Source: Proteromonas lacertae
Taxonomy: Eukaryota
Length of the DNA: 25,243 bases
Direction: 5' to 3'
Assembly (NCBI GenBank): GCA_002245135.1
Contig: NGBS01000297.1
Location: 248,001 to 273,243 of the forward strand
The notes beneath the pieces are model-generated. The model searched no databases and was not told the DNA's origin. It saw only the letters and a program-made list of their open reading frames with translations. Of this stretch, positions 1-25,243 are shown one piece after another; the stretch's first letter is position 1, and each line of letters begins with the position of its first letter. The position numbers and the translations under genes were made by a program.

Positions 1-983
1 TCTTCACTTTCATCAGATCCAATTTTTGCTATCACACATTTATCACCTTGTTTATATATACACCTATCACCTTTTTTGAATTGGTTGTACAATCTAATGT
101 CTTTACATTTAATATAATTATCATAATCTCTAATTTTGAATTCTATAATACCATCATCTATTAAGGATTCAATATACTTTTCATACACAAAATGTTCAAC
201 TTTATCATCATAGAAATTACATTTTAATAATTTTTCATCCATATTGTCTATATTACACAATTCTATGTGTTTCTCAACTAGACTTGTATTGTCACAATTA
301 TCATCAATTTCATTCAACATTCTTTCATAGATTTTATAGTCGTCTATCAAATTATTTTTTATTTCATTTAACTTTTCATTTAAATAACTACATTTTTCTA
401 TATCATTATCATATATCCTTAATAAATCATATCTATTAACTATAAATAAACAATATACATATTTCCTTCAACTTTATTTCTATATATTTTCAGTATTTCT
501 GTATCATTTATTCTTTTGGAATACTCTTCTTCGTTTTGTTTGATTAAAGATGTGTAATAATCATAAATGATATTGTTGAATGTGATTTTGTTTATCAAAT
601 ATTTGTAATTGGAAAAATATATCAATGTCTTTAATAAACGATTTATTAATCTCATTATATAGTCATTACATTCCATTGAGTCATTCTTTTCTACTTTTAA
701 TAATTTGTTTATTATTATTTTCAGTATTTCATTTTCAATCTCGAAATTTTTGAATCTATTTTCTTTCATCATATCACTCATTTTACACATTATTGTCAAT
801 AAGTTTTCTATTATTTCTTTCAGATTATATACATCTATGTAATTGGTGTTGGTGATTGGATCATTATTGATATAAAGATTATTCACATTGATATTGTAAC
901 TATTAAAATATTCACTCATTAAACTTATCTCTCCTTTCATTTTAGGAAATAATTCGATTATCTAATATCATTAATATATCATC

Positions 984-1014
<31 letters not shown>

Positions 1015-1342
1015 GAATTTTAGATATATGTTTCAGTTGAAGTATTTTCTTTTTTATATCTCTCAAACTCATTTTACTGTCTATCTTATTGTACATATAT
1101 CTATTTAATGTATTTTCTTCTTTCAATATGAATGGATATTCATTTAAGTATAATTTCTTATAATATATTTTATGCTATTTCATTTTATTATTATTATATA
1201 TATATATTATACTTTTATTGAATACAATAATGATAAATCTATCACTCTCTTTTCTTTCATCTCTTGCATTTTCATCAAGTTCTCTTTACAACTCTCATCA
1301 TCATAACATAATATTTCATTTATTAATTCTTTTCTATTTAAA

Positions 1343-1373
<31 letters not shown>

Positions 1374-4294
1374 CAAGTTTAATTCATCTATCTCTTTTAT
1401 TGACAGTATTGAATTCATCTCATTCAAATAATTATAATTCTCTTTTAGTTCACATAGTTTGTTTATATTTATATCATATATATTCTCATTCTTCTTTTCT
1501 ATATCATCTAAGTCAATTATTAGCTTGCTTTCTCGAAGTTCATATTCATTTCTCATTAATATGTTCTTTAACATATTTCTATTCATTATATTCATCAAAT
1601 ATATACATATGTATATCCATTTTGGGAATTATATCTCTCACATATTTTACTTCTATCTCATCTAATACTCTTTCTAATATCGTATTTATTGTATTATCAT
1701 CATAGTCTTCTTCTTTCAGTAATACACTTATATCAGTCTCTTTTAAACTGAATTTGTTTATTTCATTTATATTATTCTTTAATTCTTCTTTTATATTATT
1801 CACATTTTTCCAATTATCTAAAAATTGATTTATCTTTTTTAATTTGGTTAGTAGAATCTCAAGTATTTCTTGATCACTCTTTTGTAAATCTAAATTGTTC
1901 ATTTCTATGTATAGTTTCAATAATATTGATTTGTTTATTAGATTAAATCTATCTTTTTCTTCTAATTTATACATTTCTTCTTTTATCGTATTATATTTTA
2001 TCATTTTTAGCTTTATCTCATTTATCTATTATTCATTACATTATATTAACATATATATATATATATATATATATATTCATACATTCTCATTACATATATT
2101 ACATATTATACTCTCTTTATAGTTGTTTAGTATTATATCACTTTTCTCTAGTAACATTTCACAGTCTAATTCTTTCAGTATTTCCATTTTACTTTTATAT
2201 TCTTCCATTGAATATTCCATTGAAGGTATTTCATCTTTTAAATCTATATCATTATTTTTCTCATATTCTATTAGATTTAATAGTTTTAAATAGTTTAGAT
2301 TATCTTTCATGATTTTCATTAATTTTTCATTTTCTTCTTTCTTTTCTAACATCTCACTTATATCTTTCAATATTATATCATTATAATCATTGATATAACT
2401 CTATATATATATATATATTATAATTATCATTTTAATATATACATTTATTTCTTTATTACACTCATTCATATCTTCGATTGTTGTATTTTCTGATAAGATC
2501 TTATTCTCATTTTTTTTCATTTCATCATATGATTCTTCATATCTGTTGAATAATTCGGAATAAACGTCATTGTCATATAACTTGTATGTATTGAGTTTGA
2601 TGAAGATATAATCCCTAAATAATAATAACTATACTAATAATTCATACAGACATGAAAGCTGGTTATAAGTATTCTTTGAAGAATGGCAGTAATTAAATGA
2701 GTTCATTAACAACATGTCTAATTTTAAGATATATTTTATAGGTTCTTCATATTCTAAGAATTTGTAATTCTTGTGTTTATTTGATACTTCAATACTATTC
2801 ACAAATTCTTTAAAATACTCAAAATTTCTGTTTTCTTCTATACTTTTGACTATTTGATTGAATGATTCATCTGAAAGTAAATCATTATAAAACATTAAAC
2901 AAAAGTATAATTTAGCTTTATTACAATCTTTTTCTTCCTTATATTTTTCTATCAACTCTTTTGATCTTTTATTCTTTAATCTTATTGAATCCAACTGAAC
3001 ACAATGATAGTTCCATCTTCCCTCATAGATCATATTATAATAATCTGCCCCATATGAATTAGCTTCATCATAATTTAAAGTTTTCTCTATCTTATATTCT
3101 ATACCTAACGATTGCATGTATTGTTCAATGGCTTTTTGAATGAATGGAATTCTAACTGATCCTCCTAAGATTACTACATTACATTCATTAAAATTTGACA
3201 TTGTTTTTCCTTCAATAGTAATTGCTCTTTTTATGAGATATTTTAATCTTATATTGACAAATTTAGAGTTTAATAAATCATTCAATTCATCTATTCTAAA
3301 AACTCCACTATAATCACCTTCTTCATAAATATCATCAATCTCCACAGCAATCTAAATTGAGAATAATCAATAATTATACTTCAGAAGCACCATCTGCTGA
3401 TAACTTACATTTACAACTTTCTATTACTTTCTTGATCTTTAATATATTTCTTCTATCATTCTTTAATATATAACCATGTTGTTCACCATATTCATTGATA
3501 TTACTATAGAAGTAATTAAAAAGTATATTATCAATTTCATTACCTCCTAAACTATTATCACTCACATGATTTATTATCTCACATTTACCCTATTCACCAT
3601 TATATTACAATTATATATACTTTCGTATATTCTATTACACTAATCTCACTGTTATTATATCCTATATCCATTAGAATTATCTTTCGATTTTCATTCTCAT
3701 TTAGTTGACTGTCATTTTCATAACCATAACATAAACTACTACTTATATAGTTTGGTATTATTTCGATATTATTTATTCCATTTAAATTATATAAACTATA
3801 TAACAAACTCTGTTTGAATTTGTCTATATAAGATGGAACAGATAAACATAGATTAAAAGGATAATTTATGTCTCTTTTTTTTAATTGTTCCATTATTTTA
3901 TTTATAAACATGTATTCTATTTGATCAATCGTATATATAGTATTATCAACATAAAATCCTATTCCATTAACACCTATATTAATCAACGAATCTGGTGAAT
4001 GTAATGGTATATTCAATATCATTTCTGAGTTTATATTTCCAAATAAATCCAATGGTTTGTGTAGTGTACAATTGCCTTTCATCTATTACCTATTATCTGA
4101 ATATAATACATTGTGTTGGGCTGTTTCTCCAAATAATCTTTCTGTTTCCTCTAATCTTATAATAAAACTATCAAAATGTAGATGAATTTATACGGTGTGG
4201 ATTTCTTAGATAATTCATTTTCTATTATGATTGTTGGATGTTTACTAGTCAAAACGTATTTACTTCCACCAAAATCACATCCTACACACTCCAT
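1..4294 (-). CDS. Host spliced gene: divergent Hsp70/Hsp110-family nucleotide-binding domain plus long N/E/K-rich helical extension; 3' end lies beyond the window
   Basis: ATG at 4294 (MECVGCDFGGS). Hsp70 motifs: TPFIIRLEETERLFGE, IILMDIGYNNSEISV, LGGNEID, CKCKLS, VVILGGSVRIPFIQ, TLNYDEANSYGA. One open frame results after removing GTAT..TAG introns at 4168-4193, 4083-4109, 3590-3620, 3352-3379, 2615-2647, 2401-2442, 2026-2082, 1579-1606, 1334-1374, 1175-1212, 962-1009 and 433-458 (about 1290 codons in the window). Confidence 0.88.
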
Positions 4295-4411
4295 AAAACA
4301 AAAAATATGAAAAAGAGTCAAACTTGTTTGTTAATCTATTTTGATTTGTTACAGTTATTATTGAATATGTCTCAAGATTGTATAGTTGGATGTGATTCAT
4401 AATAATGAAAG

Positions 4412-4479
4412 AAAGGGGGAAATGAGTACAATTTGAAACCCCTATTTTTTTTGTATTTTTTGTATTGATTTCCCCCTAT
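4412..4479 (+). repeat. Direct repeat copy 1 (~68 bp) with internal 18-bp imperfect inverted arms
   Basis: aaagggggaaatgagtacaatttgaaacccct...ttgtattgatttccccctat recurs at 19396-19462 with one substitution and one T-run indel. Arms 4414-4431 and 4460-4477 are 16/18 complementary. Confidence 0.95.
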
Positions 4480-4526
4480 TGTTTTTTCACCCTTAGAAAC
4501 ATAATTAAACAATAAAAATAATACCA

Positions 4527-4560: not shown

Positions 4561-4631
4561 CCAAAAAAATGGATCCTTTACTCGATCGTGAAATGGATTT
4601 CACGATCGAGTAAAGGACCCATTTTTTTTGG
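4561..4631. repeat. Near-perfect ~34-bp inverted repeat with 2-nt loop
   Basis: ccaaaaaaatggatcctttactcgatcgtgaaat-gg-atttcacgatcgagtaaaggacccattttttttgg. Confidence 0.95.
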
Positions 4632-6491: not shown

Positions 6492-6580
6492 GGCCACTTG
6501 ACAACTTGAATTGTAATATAAGTTACAACTGGGGCCACTTGACAACTTGAATTGTAATATAAGTTACAACTTGGGCCAGT
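6492..6580. repeat. 41-bp-period tandem repeat (2 copies plus the degenerate start of a third)
   Basis: ggccacttgacaacttgaattgtaatataagttacaact at 6492 and 6533; ggcca again at 6574. Confidence 0.93.
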
Positions 6581-7604: not shown

Positions 7605-7636
7605 AACGAATTTATTTTCAAAATAGATTTTATCTT

Positions 7637-8627: not shown

Positions 8628-10085
8628 ATGGCTTTATCTATTCCAAAAGAACAGAAACATGGTGTAGATGTCCCTGTGATGCTACCCTTCTATAATTATG
8701 TGAGATTGTCTCCGATGGGATCAACATCAGAATACAAGTTGGATACAAATACTTATTCAGAAGAGATTAGATGGGAGATAAGTGGAGATAATATTATCAA
8801 TTTAGCTAAGTCATATATCCAATTCGATATCGAAGTAAAATTAAATCCTTATGATGATGGTACCTATGCAAGCGATGGTAGTACTGGTAATTTAGTCGGT
8901 AAAGGTTTATATCCGAGTATGATAAAAGGAATTAAAGAAGGGTTTGGCTTGGCCTCTTTTAGAATTTGTAATCAGACCGGAACAGATCTGGTCAAGCTTG
9001 ATGATTCGTATGAACCATATCGTGTATTTATGGACGAATTAGTTAGAAAGAGATCTGATATATTCTATCAAGACAATTACTATGATGGAATACAATTAGA
9101 TTGGGATGATGATAATCATAATTATAAAGTTCAAGATATCAATAAGTGGAAAGTAGAACCTAGTACACAATATGTTGAATTAAAAGCTAGTACTAGTGCA
9201 TCTACAGCAACAGCATATGCAGTTCAGTATAAAGATTCAGTTATATTACATTTCAAATTACAATTAGGTAAATTTTACAATACATTTGCTGCATTAAAGA
9301 GCGATGTATTCTTTGGAGAGAGAATGTATATATGCATTCGTTTTCAAACCACAAGTAATTATGGTTTATTAAAAGCATATACACCAGATGAATATGCAAG
9401 AATGAAAAATGATAAAACAAAAGATAATGTAAACTATACAGTATCACATGCAGAAGTTGATATAAATGAAGCAATATTCAAGAATTTCAAATTCTATGCT
9501 TATATCAACAAGGATACTCAATGCAACAACAATACCAAACAATACTGCTTATCAAAACCTATTCAATTCAATGATTTTAGATGTCATCAAATTAAAATAC
9601 CATCAGGTGGATCTGGCATATTCAATTATTCATTCACATTGAATAGTTCCAATGGACCATTTGTTCGTTACATAATCTATAGGCCATGGATAGAATCATT
9701 AAAAAGATATGCACATGTACCTGAAAATGCACAATTCAGATGGATGATCAATGATTTTGTATATCAGCCAGATTATACACTTATGCAATATTATGATAGC
9801 TATATGACTGTCCGTGAATATTTCCAAGACTCATGGTATGATATATTCAGAAAAGATGAAAAATTCAATGACAAGTTCTTTGAGATATTGAATTTTGGCT
9901 CTAAGGATTTGGACAATATTAAGAACCAGGCAGGTAGACCTTTGGCTACTGATTTGAAAATAACCTTTGAATTTTCAACACCTGGTACAAATGACTTTAC
10001 TAATAATGATATCACTCATCGTTTCTATATCATCACTGGACGTATGGTCACTATTAATGGAAGTGGTATTGTAAGTGTAGTTTAA
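8628..10085 (+). CDS. Major capsid protein (double jelly roll)
   Basis: 485 aa from the first ATG. YVRLSP...EEIRWEISGDNIINLAKSYIQFDIEV resembles the Polinton/PLV MCP N-terminus; beta-rich; C-terminal MVTINGSGIVSVV; lies between penton and ATPase. Confidence 0.85.
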   Translation: MALSIPKEQKHGVDVPVMLPFYNYVRLSPMGSTSEYKLDTNTYSEEIRWEISGDNIINLAKSYIQFDIEVKLNPYDDGTYASDGSTGNLVGKGLYPSMIKGIKEGFGLASFRICNQTGTDLVKLDDSYEPYRVFMDELVRKRSDIFYQDNYYDGIQLDWDDDNHNYKVQDINKWKVEPSTQYVELKASTSASTATAYAVQYKDSVILHFKLQLGKFYNTFAALKSDVFFGERMYICIRFQTTSNYGLLKAYTPDEYARMKNDKTKDNVNYTVSHAEVDINEAIFKNFKFYAYINKDTQCNNNTKQYCLSKPIQFNDFRCHQIKIPSGGSGIFNYSFTLNSSNGPFVRYIIYRPWIESLKRYAHVPENAQFRWMINDFVYQPDYTLMQYYDSYMTVREYFQDSWYDIFRKDEKFNDKFFEILNFGSKDLDNIKNQAGRPLATDLKITFEFSTPGTNDFTNNDITHRFYIITGRMVTINGSGIVSVV

Positions 10086-10146: not shown

Positions 10147-11004
10147 ATGAGTAAAGTTAATTTAGAAAAAATAAACAACATAGTCATAAATCCTGTTGAG
10201 ACAGTAGTCAAAGGATGTGGAAAACGCTCCAAAGATAGTGTCCTTGGATATGACTATTTCCAGGAGCCATTCTGCAACATATTTATTTTAGCTAAGAAAA
10301 ACAGTGGTAAGACTACACTTATATTTAATATGATCCAACACTTGCTAAAAAAGGGATATGACCAAGTAGTGTATTTTTTCGTTGCAACTATATCCAAGGA
10401 TATCATATATGAGAAAATCACTGATATGCTCAAGTATAACCAAATTGAGTACCATTGCTATGATTCAGTAGTGAATGAAGATAGAGTGAATATATTGGAT
10501 GCAGTATTAGATAATATCAAAGATATAGACAAAGATAATTATGATTACCCAGAGAATATATTTATATTCGATGATATATCATTCGATTTAAGAAATAAAT
10601 CCGTTTCTAAATTACTTAAGTCAAACCGTCATTACAAGTCAAAAGTAATTATATCAAGTCAATATGTCACTGACATTACTCCCTCTGTTCGTTTACAGCT
10701 TGATTACTGTTTGGTATTCAAAAACCTGAGTATGGCTAATTTACGAAATCTGTATGCAAGTTTAGATATATGGATCGATTTTGATGTTTTCAAATCATAT
10801 TATGATTATGCAACTAAACAGAGTAATCACTCATTTTTATATATCGATTTATATAATCATGAATTTAGAGTGAATTTTGATAGCAGAATTAGAGATAATA
10901 GTAATAATAGCTATAATCACAATAATAAATATGATCACCTCATTTCCTATAGCAGCGATGATGAGTCCACTGATTCATCAAGTTATCCCAGCGATTCGGA
11001 ATAA
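10147..11004 (+). CDS. A32/FtsK-HerA family genome-packaging ATPase
   Basis: Walker A variant AKKNSGKTT, Walker B IFIFDD, NRHY arginine motif, IISSQY, PSVRLQ and HSFLYID. Confidence 0.93.
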   Translation: MSKVNLEKINNIVINPVETVVKGCGKRSKDSVLGYDYFQEPFCNIFILAKKNSGKTTLIFNMIQHLLKKGYDQVVYFFVATISKDIIYEKITDMLKYNQIEYHCYDSVVNEDRVNILDAVLDNIKDIDKDNYDYPENIFIFDDISFDLRNKSVSKLLKSNRHYKSKVIISSQYVTDITPSVRLQLDYCLVFKNLSMANLRNLYASLDIWIDFDVFKSYYDYATKQSNHSFLYIDLYNHEFRVNFDSRIRDNSNNSYNHNNKYDHLISYSSDDESTDSSSYPSDSE

Positions 11005-14933: not shown

Positions 14934-15463
14934 ATGGTTAAAAGAAGTTCAAAAGTGAAATATCGTAAGTATATCATAGGTAAAGGCAAGTTCTGGGATG
15001 GAGTAAAGAATTTCTTTAAGAAAACAAAAATTTTATCAACAGCAGCTAGTTTAATCCCAGGTGTAGGTCCAGCCTTAGGTAATGTTGTATCCAATGTAGG
15101 ATATGGTAGAAAACGTAGAAGAAGAGGTGGACAAGCAGAATGGAATTATGATGGTGGTATAAGTGGTGCTGGTTCTTTTGGAATAAAGTTAAGAATGCAA
15201 AGATACCAAAGGAATTAAAAAATGTAATTAGTGGTGGTCCAGGCAGTATGCCCTATTTAAAAAATGGTGGAATGGCTAATCCATTTGCTGTAAAGATGTT
15301 AGGTGGTCCAAGCACTATTCCAAAAAAGAATTGGACGAAAGGTGGTCCAAGTACTATACCGAAATTTTTGTTAGCAAAGAAAAAGACTGGTTCTGGTAAA
15401 AGACGTAAAAGTAGTAATAGTCTCGATAATCGATATATTGACAATAAGATTAGAGTTTTCTAG
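14934..15463 (+). CDS. Arg/Gly-rich core / protein VI-like precursor, frameshifted at 15176-15179
   Basis: GKGKFWDGVKNFFKK. Adding one T to the T4 run yields a second motif GAGSFWNKVKNAK and fuses to ORF 15248-15463 (GGPSTIPK x2). Confidence 0.7.
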
Positions 15464-15522
15464 TCTAATTTTATTTTTTTCTATTTTAATCGTATTTCTT
15501 TATTTTCATTCGAAATAACATA

Positions 15523-15816
15523 ATGCCAAAAGGTGGTAGAAGACGTAGATGCGTTTATGGAAGAAGGGGTGGTTCATTTTGGGGTAAGTTAAAAAATTGG
15601 GGTTCCAAAGCATTTAACTGGGCAAAGGATCATAAAATAGCATCCAAAATAGCTAGGGAATTTGGAAAGAACGATATCGCAGATGGATTATCAACAATGG
15701 GATTTGGTCGTAGAAGACGTAGGTCAGGAAGAGGTAGATTACCATTCAATGGAGGTGGGAGTAATCAACAAGCATTATTGAATGCATATTTAAAATCAAA
15801 GGTGGCTCGAATGTAA
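15523..15816 (+). CDS. Arg/Gly-rich protein VI-like (membrane-lytic/core) protein
   Basis: RRGGSFWGKLKNWGSKAFNWAK amphipathic helix; G(F/Y)GRRRRR motif shared with the upstream gene. Confidence 0.75.
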   Translation: MPKGGRRRRCVYGRRGGSFWGKLKNWGSKAFNWAKDHKIASKIAREFGKNDIADGLSTMGFGRRRRRSGRGRLPFNGGGSNQQALLNAYLKSKVARM

Positions 15817-15911
15817 GCTTGACTTTTAATAATGCTAATAATACTTATATTATTATTATTTTCATTGTTCTTTTTGTTAATTTTATTTTTCATAACATAG
15901 AAATAAAAAAA

Positions 15912-16526
15912 ATGAGTGATACTGAATCAACTGAATACGTGAGTGATGATAGTTCTACTGATGAGTCTGATAGTGAAGTAGAGTCAATAAATGAAAATGA
16001 TTCCAAGATGTCCAAACCAAAAATCGCAGAAGCTGAACCAAGTGATGCTATGATCAATGAATTACTATCACAATTCTCTCCAAAGGATATATACAACATA
16101 TTACAGAATGATGGATCATCATCTCATAAAAATTCAATAAAAGGTAAAAAATACTCCCATAAATCCAGATCAAGATCAAGATCACATGAGAGATCCAAAA
16201 GAAGATCTAGCAAGAAACAAAAATCAAATGCTTTAGACGAGCCAAAGTCCAAACGTGGTGGTGGTAGAAAAAATAGTAAAAAGGATAGGGACTCATCATT
16301 ACCTCCTCCTAGTCGTATGACAAAAGCTGAATTACAAATAGCTTTGAAAGAAACCAGAGATCAATTAGGCAAATATATGAAGAAATTAGAAAAGAGTTCA
16401 AATCCAAAGAAAGAGAAAATAGAGAAAGTAAAAGAACCAGAACCAGAAGAAGATAAACCATTAGGTAATGATATTGCAGGTAGAGAAATACAAGGCGAGC
16501 CTATCGAGCCTGTTTATGTTCAATAA
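15912..16526 (+). CDS. Charged low-complexity protein (acidic N-terminus, RS/K-rich middle, coiled coil)
   Basis: First ATG at 15912 (MSDTES); SRSRSRS tract. Confidence 0.75.
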   Translation: MSDTESTEYVSDDSSTDESDSEVESINENDSKMSKPKIAEAEPSDAMINELLSQFSPKDIYNILQNDGSSSHKNSIKGKKYSHKSRSRSRSHERSKRRSSKKQKSNALDEPKSKRGGGRKNSKKDRDSSLPPPSRMTKAELQIALKETRDQLGKYMKKLEKSSNPKKEKIEKVKEPEPEEDKPLGNDIAGREIQGEPIEPVYVQ

Positions 16527-16597: not shown

Positions 16598-17620
16598 ATG
16601 AAAAAACTAAATAAGAAAATACTGCTTGCTGTGTTTGCTCGGATGAGAGGCAAAGGCAAAAGAAAGAAGATACGGAGAGGTGAAGGATATAAAGGACATG
16701 ACAAATATTATCAGAGTTTATATAATAATTTTTATAGAGAAAATGCGAAAGATTTAGTGGATATAAGAAACAGTCGTTTAAATGAAATAAAAGATGAGAT
16801 TACTAAGTTAAATTCTAAAGACACTCCTCCTAATGAAGGTGATATTCGTAAATTGAATGATGAGCAAAAATTTTTAGAGAGACAGAATGCAATCGATTCT
16901 ATGTTATCTACATCATTACATGAAGGTAATGCAATGGCTATACCACTTGCTAATAGTTTAAGAGAGATTGATGATCAGCATTTGTTTGGTCCTAACATGT
17001 ATGTGAATATGAATAGACCTAATTACAATGAAATGGCTCAAGCAAGTGCAAAGACTAGGATGCAGATGGGTGAGTATATGAGTAATCCAATTAACCAAAT
17101 CAAGATGTCACAAATGCAACAAATGGTATATATGCTATATGTTTTGATTTATATATAATAGTAGAAGTTGAATAAATTGATTACTCCTAAAGCAGAAACA
17201 GATATTAAAGTACAGCCGTCTACTGGTAATACAGATGATGTTAAAGAACAGACTGATCATGATCCTGTTGATGATATTACTATTGACGATGTTAAAAAAT
17301 TTACTAAAGAACAAATGGATGAAATATTTGATGAATATGACTTTACAGAAGCTCAGAAAACTAAAATAAAAGAATTATGGGAAGAAGCTCAAAATATTAA
17401 ACAATATGAAGAATGGGTTGCAAATGGAAAAACAGATGATGATGATGATGAAAATGAAGATATTGAATTCAATAAACCAAAAGAAGAAGAAGAAGAAGAT
17501 GATGATGAATTTAAATCTGATTTTGAAGAAGAAGAAGAACAAGAAGATGAGAATGAGGATAATGTTAAAAAAATTGATAGACAGTTAAACAGAATTTTTG
17601 ATGAACTGGGTATTCATTAA
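16598..17620 (+). CDS. Spliced viral gene (intron 17126-17164): basic N-terminus with GxG motifs, acidic C-terminus
   Basis: ORFs 16598-17158 and 17168-17620 share a frame. Removing the 39-nt GTATAT..TAG segment deletes the stops and gives QMQQM/KLNKLITPK. Confidence 0.75.
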
Positions 17621-17631
17621 TAATATCATCT

Positions 17632-17655
17632 ATAATATCAATAACGGCTATATTT
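17632..17655 (+). promoter_or_regulatory. Putative promoter motif (copy of 10094-10117)
   Basis: 23/24 identity; 45 nt upstream of the ATG at 17701. Confidence 0.6.
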
Positions 17656-17700
17656 TTAATAGCATTGTTTCTCTATTTTTTATATTGTTTTATATATTTT

Positions 17701-19032: not shown

Positions 19033-19395
19033 TCTTATGATAGTTTATAGTGTATTGGAAATAGAAAAAACGAATTAAAAAAAAGAAGGCTTGAAGGCTC
19101 GAAATTGTTTTTAACAAAAAATAAACTGTTTTTTGAGAGCAATCCAGTCCAAGATTAAAGGCTTGAAATATATATTACAAAGCTTGTAGAATATTCTGCA
19201 AAGCACTGTAAATCTTAAAAAATAAAGATTAACTTAGTCAAACCATCAAGCTTGATGTTTTTTTCTTTTGATTTTTTTATTCTATAATTAATTTAATACT
19301 ATGTTAATTATATGTTATTGTGAGTCATCATTGTGAGTGCATCGACTGATAGTCAAATTTGATATTTGAAAGATGATGTATAATAATAATGAATA

Positions 19396-19462
19396 AAAGG
19401 GGGAAATGAGTACAATTTGAAACCCCTGTTTTTTTGTATTTTTTGTATTGATTTCCCCCTAT
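19396..19462 (+). repeat. Direct repeat copy 2 of 4412-4479
   Basis: Near-identical sequence in the same orientation, 14984 bp downstream. Confidence 0.95.
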
Positions 19463-19657
19463 GTGTTTTTTGTCCGTTTCATAATCAAATCATAATTCAA
19501 GCTTACATTATTTTTCGCTTTTCTGTTTGAATTTAAACAAAAATAATTATTCCATTTGAATCCTCATCTTATGATGAATCTATTTATGTTGTTAGTTCAA
19601 ATTATAGAAAGTGAATGACATATAATTTCAAAAAATAATTCAATAAAAACAATCTCA

Positions 19658-19884: not shown

Positions 19885-20683
19885 TTAATAATCATTTTGG
19901 TACTCTGGCTCCTCATCATCATCATCTACTATATATTGTGAGAAGTTATCATCATCATCTTCCTCTGTAGTACTATCTTCTTGTTCTTGGTTTTTGGTTG
20001 AAATGTTTTTTTGATTTATTTTCTTTCTTTTGAATCTTGGAGTTTTAGATGTACTGCGCTTTCTTTTTGTGGATACCACCTTTAACAACTTGTTGTTGTT
20101 GTCATCATCATCATTATAATCATCATCATTCAGGTTATCAAACAACGATGCTATAGAGACTTTACTACTTACTATACTTTCAGCAGTACTTCTGTAAACA
20201 ATATCTCCTTTCGAATTCTTGTTTTCTTCTTTTTCGCATTTTGCTAAATCGTTGTCACCGAAATGTATGATATACATACAAGTCAGTTCCACCATGTCCT
20301 CCATTGCATGGTCAAGCATACGATCATACTATTGATTCAAAATTGAAATATATATTAAATGGATATACGATGCTTTTGTCCAGATCCTTTTTATACATGA
20401 TATTACATAGCAGGACAGACATCAACACTCTGGACATTTTTAATCTTTCATGTCGAGCATCAATCTTTTCAATTTCTGTGAATCTTTTGTACCATGTACT
20501 GAAACGCCTTATACTGAAGTTACCATTCCAGCTATAGACATATAATAATATATTATACCTATAACGTTGCAAATCTTTCTCATGTTCTACAATCGTCTTA
20601 AAATTCTCACAAAAAATTTTATATATGCTCGGATTTGGATCATTAATGAAACTATTTTTGTATAGTATCTTCCAGTTGCTCAT
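19885..20683 (-). CDS. Spliced viral gene (intron 20329-20368): helical domain plus acidic/NLS tail
   Basis: Removing the 40-nt gtatatcc..aatcaatag segment joins ..DLDKSI/YDRMLDHAMEDM.. in frame. Confidence 0.75.
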
Positions 20684-21342: not shown

Positions 21343-21465
21343 TTCATAATCGATTTTCCTTTCCCTTTCTTTTTTTCACTTATTTACCTAGAGAAAAGTG
21401 ATCGACTTCACTTTCCCTAAGTAAGGAAGTGAAAAAAAGAAAGGGTAAGAAGAATCGGTTATGGA
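21343..21465. repeat. ~120-bp imperfect hairpin
   Basis: Perfect 19-bp arms ccctttctttttttcactt / aagtgaaaaaaagaaaggg plus inner and outer partial stems. Confidence 0.85.
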
Positions 21466-21998: not shown

Positions 21999-22193
21999 TT
22001 TAATATAGTAAAAAATCAAAAAAACAATAAATTAAAAGTAAAGTTAATTATTTCTTTGATAATCAAAGAAAAAATTTTAACTATATTATTACAACTCCTT
22101 AATTATCAAGGAATTTCAATTAGCAAATCATATTAATACATTTGGAGTTATTTTATTGGGTATATTTATATCTTTCTCGTTTTATAGGTTCTA

Positions 22194-25100
22194 ATGTATC
22201 CCAGCTATCCTCCTTGGTTTAATCCGTGGTATTACCAGTCTCCAAGTACTTCTATGCCTATTCAAGGCAATAGTCAAGCAAATCAGATTCCAATGTTGCC
22301 ACAAAGTTATTTTAATCCCTGGATGAACCCTTATTTTACTCCAGCTATCCCACCACCACCATCCTATTACTATCCTCCACCATATTATGTAGGATCATTA
22401 AATCAACATCCACAACAACCTCAGCAGCAGCAGCAACAACAACAACAACAACAACAATCAAACACTACTAGAAGTACTAATGGAACTAGTTTCATAACAC
22501 CAAGAAGAAGAACAACATCTTCAATTGTAATTGATTAACCACCTCCTCCACCTCCAAAAATACAGCGATTAGCAGAAATCCCAGATGATTTATTACCAGA
22601 TACACCTCCTCCTGAAGATCCACCAACACTTTCACCAATTAATGATGGACCAATTCCTGAAATACATCCTCAATCAACTACAGATGTTGAAAGAAGAAGG
22701 CAGCTACAGGAAGAAATGATTGCTCTGGATGTTGTTGATAATCATCCAGAGCAGCTGAAAACAATGTCACATCCTGAAAGAGTAAGTTTGTTACAACTTG
22801 TAGAGAGAAGTAGTAGAGACTACGAACGTACCTACGAGAAGATTATAAATGAAGAAGATGGAAAGAAACCTGAGGATTTGTTTACCCAAATCTGCAATGC
22901 ATCAAGTGATTTTATGGTTACCATACGTAACTACATAAATGAGAAGAAATTTTCTTATATAAAAGTTTATTTCAGATTCAGAGTAGGTTATATAGGATCC
23001 GATGAACCAGCCAATGCACAAGTAAGTTGTTACAAAACATTCGAAACAGCGCCAGAAATTATAACTTCTCAAGAGTTAGGTACAATTGGTTCAAAGTTAA
23101 ACAATGCCATGATTCGAGATTTAGGTTCAATTTTCAACACTGAAAGATCTGAACTAAAGTTCAGATATATTAAGAAGGTAGAGATGATACTGATGAAAAG
23201 TTCAATGGCTGCTGGATCCTCTACAGAAGATGACAACATAAAGTTACCAGCAAGTCTCAACAATAGAAAGTGCGTTATTAATTTAGTAAGATATAGTGAA
23301 GAATGTAAGAATATGTGCTTTTTATTTAGTGTGGCAGCTGGTTTACACTATATAGAGTTCAAAGACCACCGTAACAGAGCAATGAAATATAAACAGTATG
23401 TAGACTTAATGGATGTAAGTAGTTTAAGGTTTCCAGTAGATGCAATTAATGATAGTGACAGAATTGATGAGTTTGAACAGCTGAATCATATTACTATCAA
23501 TATATTTACAATAGACCAGAATGAACCAATACCTTTATACGTTACCAACATAGATAAAAGAAAACACTGGCCTCATGTGAACCTATTGATATATAAAGAT
23601 CATTATATGGTAATAACAAAGTTAGAAGCCTTCCTATCACCTTCTGGTAAAAGGTGTCATAATTATTATACCAGATGCCAGTATTGTTTCTGTACTTTAT
23701 CAACAGCTGATATGATAATTCAACATCAGAAAGAGAATTGTCAATTACAAAAGGAATCATTCGTCAATTTCCACCTCCAGATACCTTCATCAAGTTTCAT
23801 AATTTCAAATACCAACAAATGATTCCTGTAGTATTATACTGGGATACAGAAGTTATACAAGTACCAATAGATCCTTCTGAAGTAATACCTGGAGCCAAAG
23901 GAGCGTTTAAAAAACATATTCTCAGCAGTTGGTGCATTCACTTAAGTTCCAGGTACCCTGAAATCATCAGCGAAGAAACATTCTTCGGAAAACTGGAATT
24001 GCAGCAAGATCCACAAGATTTGGAGATGCAACTAGTAAAGAAGTTTGTTGAGATTCAAGATTATGTATTGAAGAAGTATGAAGATTATAAAAGTGGTGAA
24101 TTGAAACCATTAGATGAAAGCACTTATATTCCAGCTCATAAAAATATCGATAAATGTATGTGGTGCAATACACCCTTCAATGAAAACGACAGAAATAGAA
24201 GGCGAACAAGACACCATGACCATTTTACTGGCAAGTATATTGCAACCTTATGTTCAAACTGTAATTGGCATTGTAGTTTACAACATATGCCTATACCATG
24301 TTTGGCACACAACAGTAAAAACTATGACAATAACTTTATAATACGCGGATTATCAAAGTTGGATAAAGAAATGGAAGCAAAATGGTACAATGATAATAAT
24401 ATTCCTATTCCAAATGATGATGATGATGATGATGAAGATAATGAAATTATACAATTACCAATACCTGAACCTGAACCTGAACCAATTGCTGATAGATTAG
24501 CTGAATACAATAGAGGTATTGAAGAAGAAAAGAAACAAGAACAAGAAGCAAAAACAGTTGATGATGAAGAAGATGCAGAAACAGAAGAAGATACTGATTC
24601 TGATTTGCCATTACCAGAAATACCACCAAATGCAATTGAAATAGTTGATGAGAATGATCCAGCAAATGAAGAAGCATTTAATGAGTTGTATTACATGTTA
24701 CATAGTAGAGATCATTACATATCACCAAGAACAGCAGAAGATATTGGATTAGAAGAAGAGATGGGAAATATTATTGTTTCACAACCTAATTCAACAACAA
24801 CTGAACAACAACAACAACAACAACCAACACCAAGAAAGAAGAAATATCATTCAAAACTATCTGTATTGTTAAAAACTGATAATAAGTTTTTACTTATCAA
24901 GTTCATGAAGTTACACTTTATAGATAGTTGTCAATTTATGCCAGCATCATTAGATTCATTAGTAAAATCATTGAAAGTCGAAACTGATGCACATGCTAAT
25001 CATAAAGTACTCTTTAAACCAGTTTATCAATATGTAACACAAACAAAAGAGATAAATGATTGTTTAAAAGAGAGAAACTGGACAGTGGATGATTTTATAG

Positions 25101-25243
25101 CTAAGTGGGGTTTACAGAAAGGTCATTTCCCCTACGAATACGTAGATAGTATTCAAAAGTTATACCTTACTGATTAATTACCTAGAAAAGAAGATTTTAA
25201 GTCTCAATTAAAACAGAATGAAGGTATTTCTGATTATAACTAT
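22194..25243 (+). pseudogene. polB: Protein-primed family B DNA polymerase (Polinton-type), 5' part, interrupted
   Basis: Motifs KLPASLNNRKCVIN..CFLFSV, FPV, EFEQLNHITINIF, HVNLL..HYMVI, PVVLYWDTE (ExoI), HHDHFTGKY..CSNCN (EndoVII-like), AHNSKNYD (ExoII), FIDSCQFMPASLDSLV and KGHFPYEY. In-frame TAA at 22536 and 25175; -1 shift near 23749-23752. Confidence 0.92.

Follow-up and report, generated by a model that had tools for sequence, protein, structure and literature searches.

We propose, and on balance believe, that a gene of an integrated Polinton-like virus carries a host-type mini-intron, and that a tandem TAG-TAG acceptor gives two spliced products. The gene lies in a 25,243-nt window of Proteromonas lacertae DNA, whose features are listed in Table 1. 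From the ATG at 16598, the unspliced frame encodes 186 residues, meets TAA TAG TAG and then stays open for 151 codons to 17620. These three stops, all inside the segment 17126-17164 (GC 18%), are the only stops within 16598-17620. Removal of the 39 nt rescues the frame and gives 327 residues with no internal stop. The earliest in-frame ATG 3' of the segment is at 17315, 50 codons into exon 2. The original prediction was therefore right that a 39-nt AT-rich segment holds the sole stops between two same-frame ORFs, and that the downstream ORF lacks a nearby ATG. Judged from the DNA, the segment is probably a real spliceosomal mini-intron. Summed over the three readings that need the donor at 17126, its use is quite likely. 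A self-splicing (group I/II) core was absent from the segment, which is 39 nt long and has a fold z of +0.85; Rfam gave no match in the window.

Table 1. Features of the window and their coordinates.
Feature	Position	Strand	Description
Host HSP70-family gene, reference set	1..4294	-	Two Pfam HSP70 matches; 12 modelled GTAT..TAG introns
Major capsid protein, double jelly-roll, intronless	8628..10085	+	Structure model, pLDDT 56 (low confidence)
P-loop ATPase	10147..11004	+	Weak P-loop matches; phrog_2666 E 4.5e-6; adjoins capsid gene
Exon 1	16598..17125	+	176 codons
Candidate spliceosomal mini-intron, distal acceptor	17126..17164	+	39 nt, phase 0, start GTATATA, end TAGTAG
Same donor, proximal acceptor	17126..17161	+	36 nt, ends AATAG as in 7 of 12 host introns
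Exon 2	17165..17620	+	151 codons, acidic, D/E = 55
Predicted two-intron viral gene	19885..20683	-	243 aa with both candidates removed; 252 aa with the 40-nt one only
Second viral intron candidate	20329..20368	-	40 nt, GTATATC..AATAG; acceptor is the first AG; removal fuses two frames into a single gene
Third candidate, weaker	20532..20558	-	27 nt, AG|GTATAAT..TAG, in frame, stopless
Polinton-type family B polymerase region	22194..25243	+	Two in-frame stops and a frameshift; cut by window end

The exon 1 product has a basic N-terminus, with K/R at 13 of the first 30 residues, and is predicted to form long helices. Searches of Pfam, PHROG and PDB sequences placed it in no known family, all Atlas matches were below 0.9, and its structure model had a pTM of 0.23. 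The combination of a basic, helical N-terminus with an acidic tail that only one form would have points to a protein that may bind DNA or regulate assembly.

As reference for host introns, we used the neighbouring HSP70-family gene, which was modelled by dynamic programming from the ATG at 4294 and runs off the window at position 1. The model contains an open 1289-codon frame and 12 introns of 26-57 nt, all GTAT..TAG. Because the scoring rewarded GTAT/TAG ends, this uniformity is partly built in; the model is also constrained by the open frame and by the two Pfam matches. In each of the 12 modelled introns, the acceptor is the nearest AG that lies 24 nt or more beyond the donor. Seven of them end in AATAG and none has a tandem acceptor. 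All are of low complexity, and they yielded no consensus for the branch point. The ends of the viral segment are splice-like, and the claim that they match those of all 12 neighbouring host introns held for these modelled introns, with the same reservation about scoring. The GC content of the host flank is 18-26%. In GC and intron size, the flank is like the low-GC Blastocystis lineages described in PMC12129017. The host gene itself is divergent and very long (>1289 codons), and it starts ~105 bp from the left end of the element.

The GTAT..TAG motif alone is no rarer than chance. Between 4401 and 25243, 2 donors scored at least as high as the donor at 17126, compared with 1.4 ± 1.2 in shuffles. 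A frame-rescuing GTAT..TAG appeared in 323 of 15,746 stop-containing shuffles of the segment (2.1%) and in 98 of 13,209 stop-containing spacer-like 39-mers (0.7%). The motif plus its context is moderately beyond chance. Coding scores were 1.03 bits per codon for exon 1 and 0.97 for 17165-17311, the 49 codons before the ATG at 17315. The 10 codons retained in the unspliced frame scored below all 3888 ten-codon windows from 16 other viral ORFs. Both flanks are coding-like, and the segment between them is non-coding-like.

These scores bear on the possibility of two genes, in which a gene A ends at a T-rich spacer and a gene B has no near start and begins at TTG 17168 or ATG 17315. The segment is 49% T, as in viral spacers, and composition barely separates it as an intron from a spacer (1.5 bits). 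Real viral spacers, however, are 31-111 nt long and end in ATG, and GTAT is present in only 1 of 10 of them. Two genes would also require, by chance (0.7-2%), a maximal donor at the coding/non-coding edge together with an in-frame acceptor, and would leave 49 coding-like codons ahead of the first ATG. Chance joins do occur in the element, which favours two genes; on the whole we find that arrangement rather improbable.

The same comparison was made across the whole element. GTAT/TAG pairs joined long frames 3 times, a count that 5 of 71 sham donor/acceptor pairs also reached. When coding-like flanks were required, 2 ORF-joining GTAT/TAG introns were found and none of the 71 sham pairs reached 2 (mean 0.15), with flank thresholds chosen after the data had been seen and the 40-nt candidate passing narrowly. 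With stopless candidates admitted the count was 3, which was reached by 3 of the 71 sham pairs. The join at 17610-17662 was rejected as a spurious chance join; its downstream flank scored -12.2 bits.

The acceptor of the mini-intron is a tandem, TAG-TAG, with the proximal AG at 17161 and the distal AG at 17164. On the host-trained model, the 36-nt form scored 17.2 bits and the 39-nt form 13.6 bits. Both acceptors fall inside the leave-one-out range of 6.2-25.3 bits. The donor scored 8.8 bits, the maximum of the host model, and the 36-nt form ranked second among 3609 GT..AG candidates. The intron originally predicted stood up in the sequence tests of ends, frame and flanks, but its single 39-nt boundary was incomplete, with a better-scoring acceptor at 17161. 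This proximal acceptor obeys the host first-AG pattern; splicing there leaves TAG as the next codon and ends the product at 176 residues. Exon 2 is translatable only from the distal AG (17164, or 17167). The long product is disfavoured because all 12 host introns use the first AG and none is tandem. Because exon 2 looks coding, the distal acceptor is presumably used at least part-time.

We propose the following scheme. Host RNA polymerase II would transcribe the gene in the nucleus, and the transcript would be spliced at donor 17126. Use of the first AG would yield the 176-residue protein, and use of the second AG a 327-residue protein with an acidic tail. Use of the distal acceptor would be frequent enough for coding selection to act on exon 2, and retention of the intron would give a 186-residue form. 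All forms would share one N-terminus and have the C-terminus set by splicing, as in adenovirus L4-22K/33K. Those two proteins are described as products of unspliced and spliced mRNAs with a common N-terminus and different C-termini (PMC4346872). The adenovirus case is also alike in belonging to a related double-jelly-roll virus group, in being nuclear and in using the host spliceosome, as is proposed here. It differs in that the present intron is a 36-39-nt protist-type intron and the switch would be a stop-bearing tandem acceptor. No sequence homology of the exon 1 product to L4-22K/33K was found in Pfam, PHROG and PDB searches.

Among human NAGNAG acceptors, a stop is given as the second triplet in about 2% of cases (PMC2699507). 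Here too the second triplet is a stop, kept or removed by the choice of acceptor. We found no stop-bearing tandem acceptor in a virus in the literature searched. One is reported as a disease allele, CFTR E831X, in which the stop is removed by tandem-acceptor splicing (PMC2951375). That allele is a precedent for a different account, in which the 36-nt intron is real and the second TAG is a nonsense mutation in a decaying copy, so that the gene is truncated or is rescued only by the tandem acceptor. The higher score of the 36-nt form, its host-like AATAG end and the first-AG rule seen in 12 of 12 host introns would all fit, as would the two in-frame stops of the polymerase region and the several frameshifts. 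However, this copy has few in-frame stops (2 compared with about 4050 sense codons), so that a nonsense change would be unlikely to fall precisely on the opening codon of exon 2. We regard this account as improbable.

Two Logan proteins, P0001 and P0008, are 99% identical to the exon 1 product. Since the 10 retained residues recur unchanged in P0008, the segment is shared beyond this assembly. P0001 includes a single residue of the segment and then ends, either with its contig or at a stop. A real stop at that point would favour two genes, but a contig edge, or a stop belonging to an intron, may also account for this end. The distant homologues P0020 (35%, 194 aa) and P0021 (31%, 191 aa) have no acidic tail, and they end within ~10 residues of the donor position. 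These ends are a point for two genes. Because all homologue proteins are intron-blind ORF calls, they are as compatible with a short protein that is conserved as with an intron near the same position. In the P0021 tail no residues correspond to a GTAT donor, and an AG|GTAA donor could lie at its end. Alignments of the homologue tails favour neither isoform, and the training set for the tail scores included three ORFs in the wrong frame. Among 583 candidates no homologue of 309-2000 aa was found, which is a weak test. No locus was recovered from viral_contigs with exon 1, the exon 1 alignment or the capsid protein as query, nor from metagenome_contigs with exon 1. On exact look-up, 0 of 3 window proteins were present; one query began a codon before ATG 17315, so its miss is uninformative. 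In a second set of window proteins, 1 of 10 was present.

We also considered that, in place of splicing, translation continues past the stops by readthrough or by recoding to glutamine. The end of exon 1 is glutamine-rich, and in-frame TAA is also found in the polymerase. Against this, three stops stand in succession, the retained codons are non-coding-like, and capsid homologues end at the TAA position. CAA/CAG is used 196 times in 16 viral ORFs, and TAA or TAG follows 14 of those ORFs. Stop recoding was rejected on this codon usage and on TAA/TAG as ORF ends, and we consider the reading extremely improbable.

The window is gene-dense from about 4400 on. The top matches of the capsid model are all double-jelly-roll capsids, from mavirus, Sputnik, PRD1-type and related viruses. 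The capsid protein matched the mavirus MCP with E 4e-8, and its model matched the Sputnik MCP with Z 9.5 and rmsd 9.8 (325 aligned). The double-jelly-roll capsid expected of a Polinton or Polinton-like virus is present here in a low-confidence model. The ATPase is likely a genome-packaging enzyme, as inferred from its position. Features of the polymerase region scored 0.92-0.94 to Endonuclease_7 and DNA_pol_B_2 clusters. The viral identity of the gene, part of the original prediction, is supported by these sequence and structure comparisons of capsid and polymerase. Small basic Gly/Arg-rich ORFs at 14934-15813 (+) may resemble adenovirus-type core proteins. No integrase and no terminal inverted repeats were seen within the window, and the element runs off its right end. 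Among 22-30 scanned ORFs there was no RNA polymerase gene, which favours transcription by the host enzyme. The window likewise contained no recognisable protease gene. By description, the element can be set beside the Blastocystis MELD virus (PMC8502044), which is likewise mid-size, with a Polinton-type polymerase and highly divergent virion proteins; the main text of that paper does not contain "splic".

A direct repeat of ~90 bp with an internal inverted repeat is found at 4399-4494, the host/element junction, and 15 kb on at 19383-19478. The first unit holds the capsid module and the second holds the polymerase. These units may represent two segments, or else elements in tandem whose ends match. 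This terminal-type repeat had no match in viral_contigs. The in-frame TAA codons of the polymerase region are at 22536-22538 and 25175-25177, and GAT precedes both. Apparent frameshifts at about 15180, 13690 and 23770 coincide with low-complexity runs. Together, the stops and frameshifts represent either decay or assembly error.

Another viral gene (19885..20683) holds one or two candidate introns on the basis of its sequence. For the 27-nt candidate, the motif alone had a P of 0.43 in codon shuffles, and its composition was equalled by 2 of 3920 windows. A 28-nt GG|GTATATT..TTATAG segment with a pyrimidine tract lies at 22160-22187 (+), 6 nt 5' of the ATG at 22194, and may be an intron in the 5' untranslated region of the polymerase gene. 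The candidate introns are not repeats of one another, and so no introner family was seen; the repeat families listed for the window also included no introner copies.

Introners are relevant here, as dinoflagellate integrated Maverick/Polinton-like elements are reported to carry them as spliceosomal introns (PMC11957031). According to that paper, they form transposon-derived repeat families and were mostly inserted after integration. Unlike them, the present candidates are unique, host-sized and of low complexity. A real intron might nevertheless have been gained after integration as genomic erosion, with no part in the replicating virus. Introns in endogenous giant viruses have been read as erosion (PMC13692296), this copy is damaged or noisy, and the six Logan homologue clusters of the capsid ORF (32-67%) are full-length single ORFs. 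However, two other sequences share 99% identity with the gene, and in one of them the segment has the same translation; such closeness leaves little time for a gain. Since the candidates are also not a repeat family, we rate post-integration gain a slim possibility.

Other viral introns differ in size and context. Host-like GT-AG introns are described in mirusviruses (PMC12768974) and in punuivirus (10.64898/2026.10.09.758095), where they are read as a sign of nuclear transcription. Pandoraviruses and some chloroviruses also have introns, as cited in PMC12768974. Unlike the present element, these intron-bearing protist viruses are described as large or giant; they belong to other phyla, and their introns measure about 80-180 nt. 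The punuivirus introns are reported in latency genes and not in late-promoter genes, and the candidates here likewise avoid the capsid gene. Cryptophyte Polinton-like viruses are reported to have group I introns (PMC12220804). We found no report of mini-introns or of a tandem-acceptor switch in a Polinton-like virus in the openly available main texts that were searched. The original prediction called such introns uncommon in Polinton-like viruses. This is fair in that one large survey on integrated viruses of protists takes them to be intron-free and predicts genes accordingly (PMC10120064), but introns are reported in the dinoflagellate elements and also in further DNA viruses of the nucleus. 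Viral introns as such thus have precedents; what would be new is the proposed tandem-acceptor arrangement in a Polinton-like virus.

If functional, the mini-introns would put transcription of this virus in the nucleus, which speaks against a cycle in the cytoplasm like that of virophages. Some short orphan ORFs of Polinton-like viruses would then be exons, and two proteins could be made in a very compact way through a tandem acceptor that bears a stop. More tentatively, and with considerable doubt, we suggest that a lineage of compact gut-protist Polinton-like viruses inherited host-sized mini-introns in several non-capsid genes, that a stop-containing tandem acceptor switches between a short and a long protein, and that intron-blind calling has split such genes throughout endogenous-virus catalogues.

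Some further sequence features of the element were observed. A motif like AACGGCTATA lies at 7605, 10105, 14866 and 17643, in each case upstream of a viral gene. A 14-base motif at 15839 and 16533 lies ahead of the genes at 15912 and 16598. These common upstream motifs are possible promoter classes. Near-perfect hairpins and a 41-bp tandem duplication are found in non-coding parts of the element, at 4563-4628, 6492-6573 and 21345-21463.
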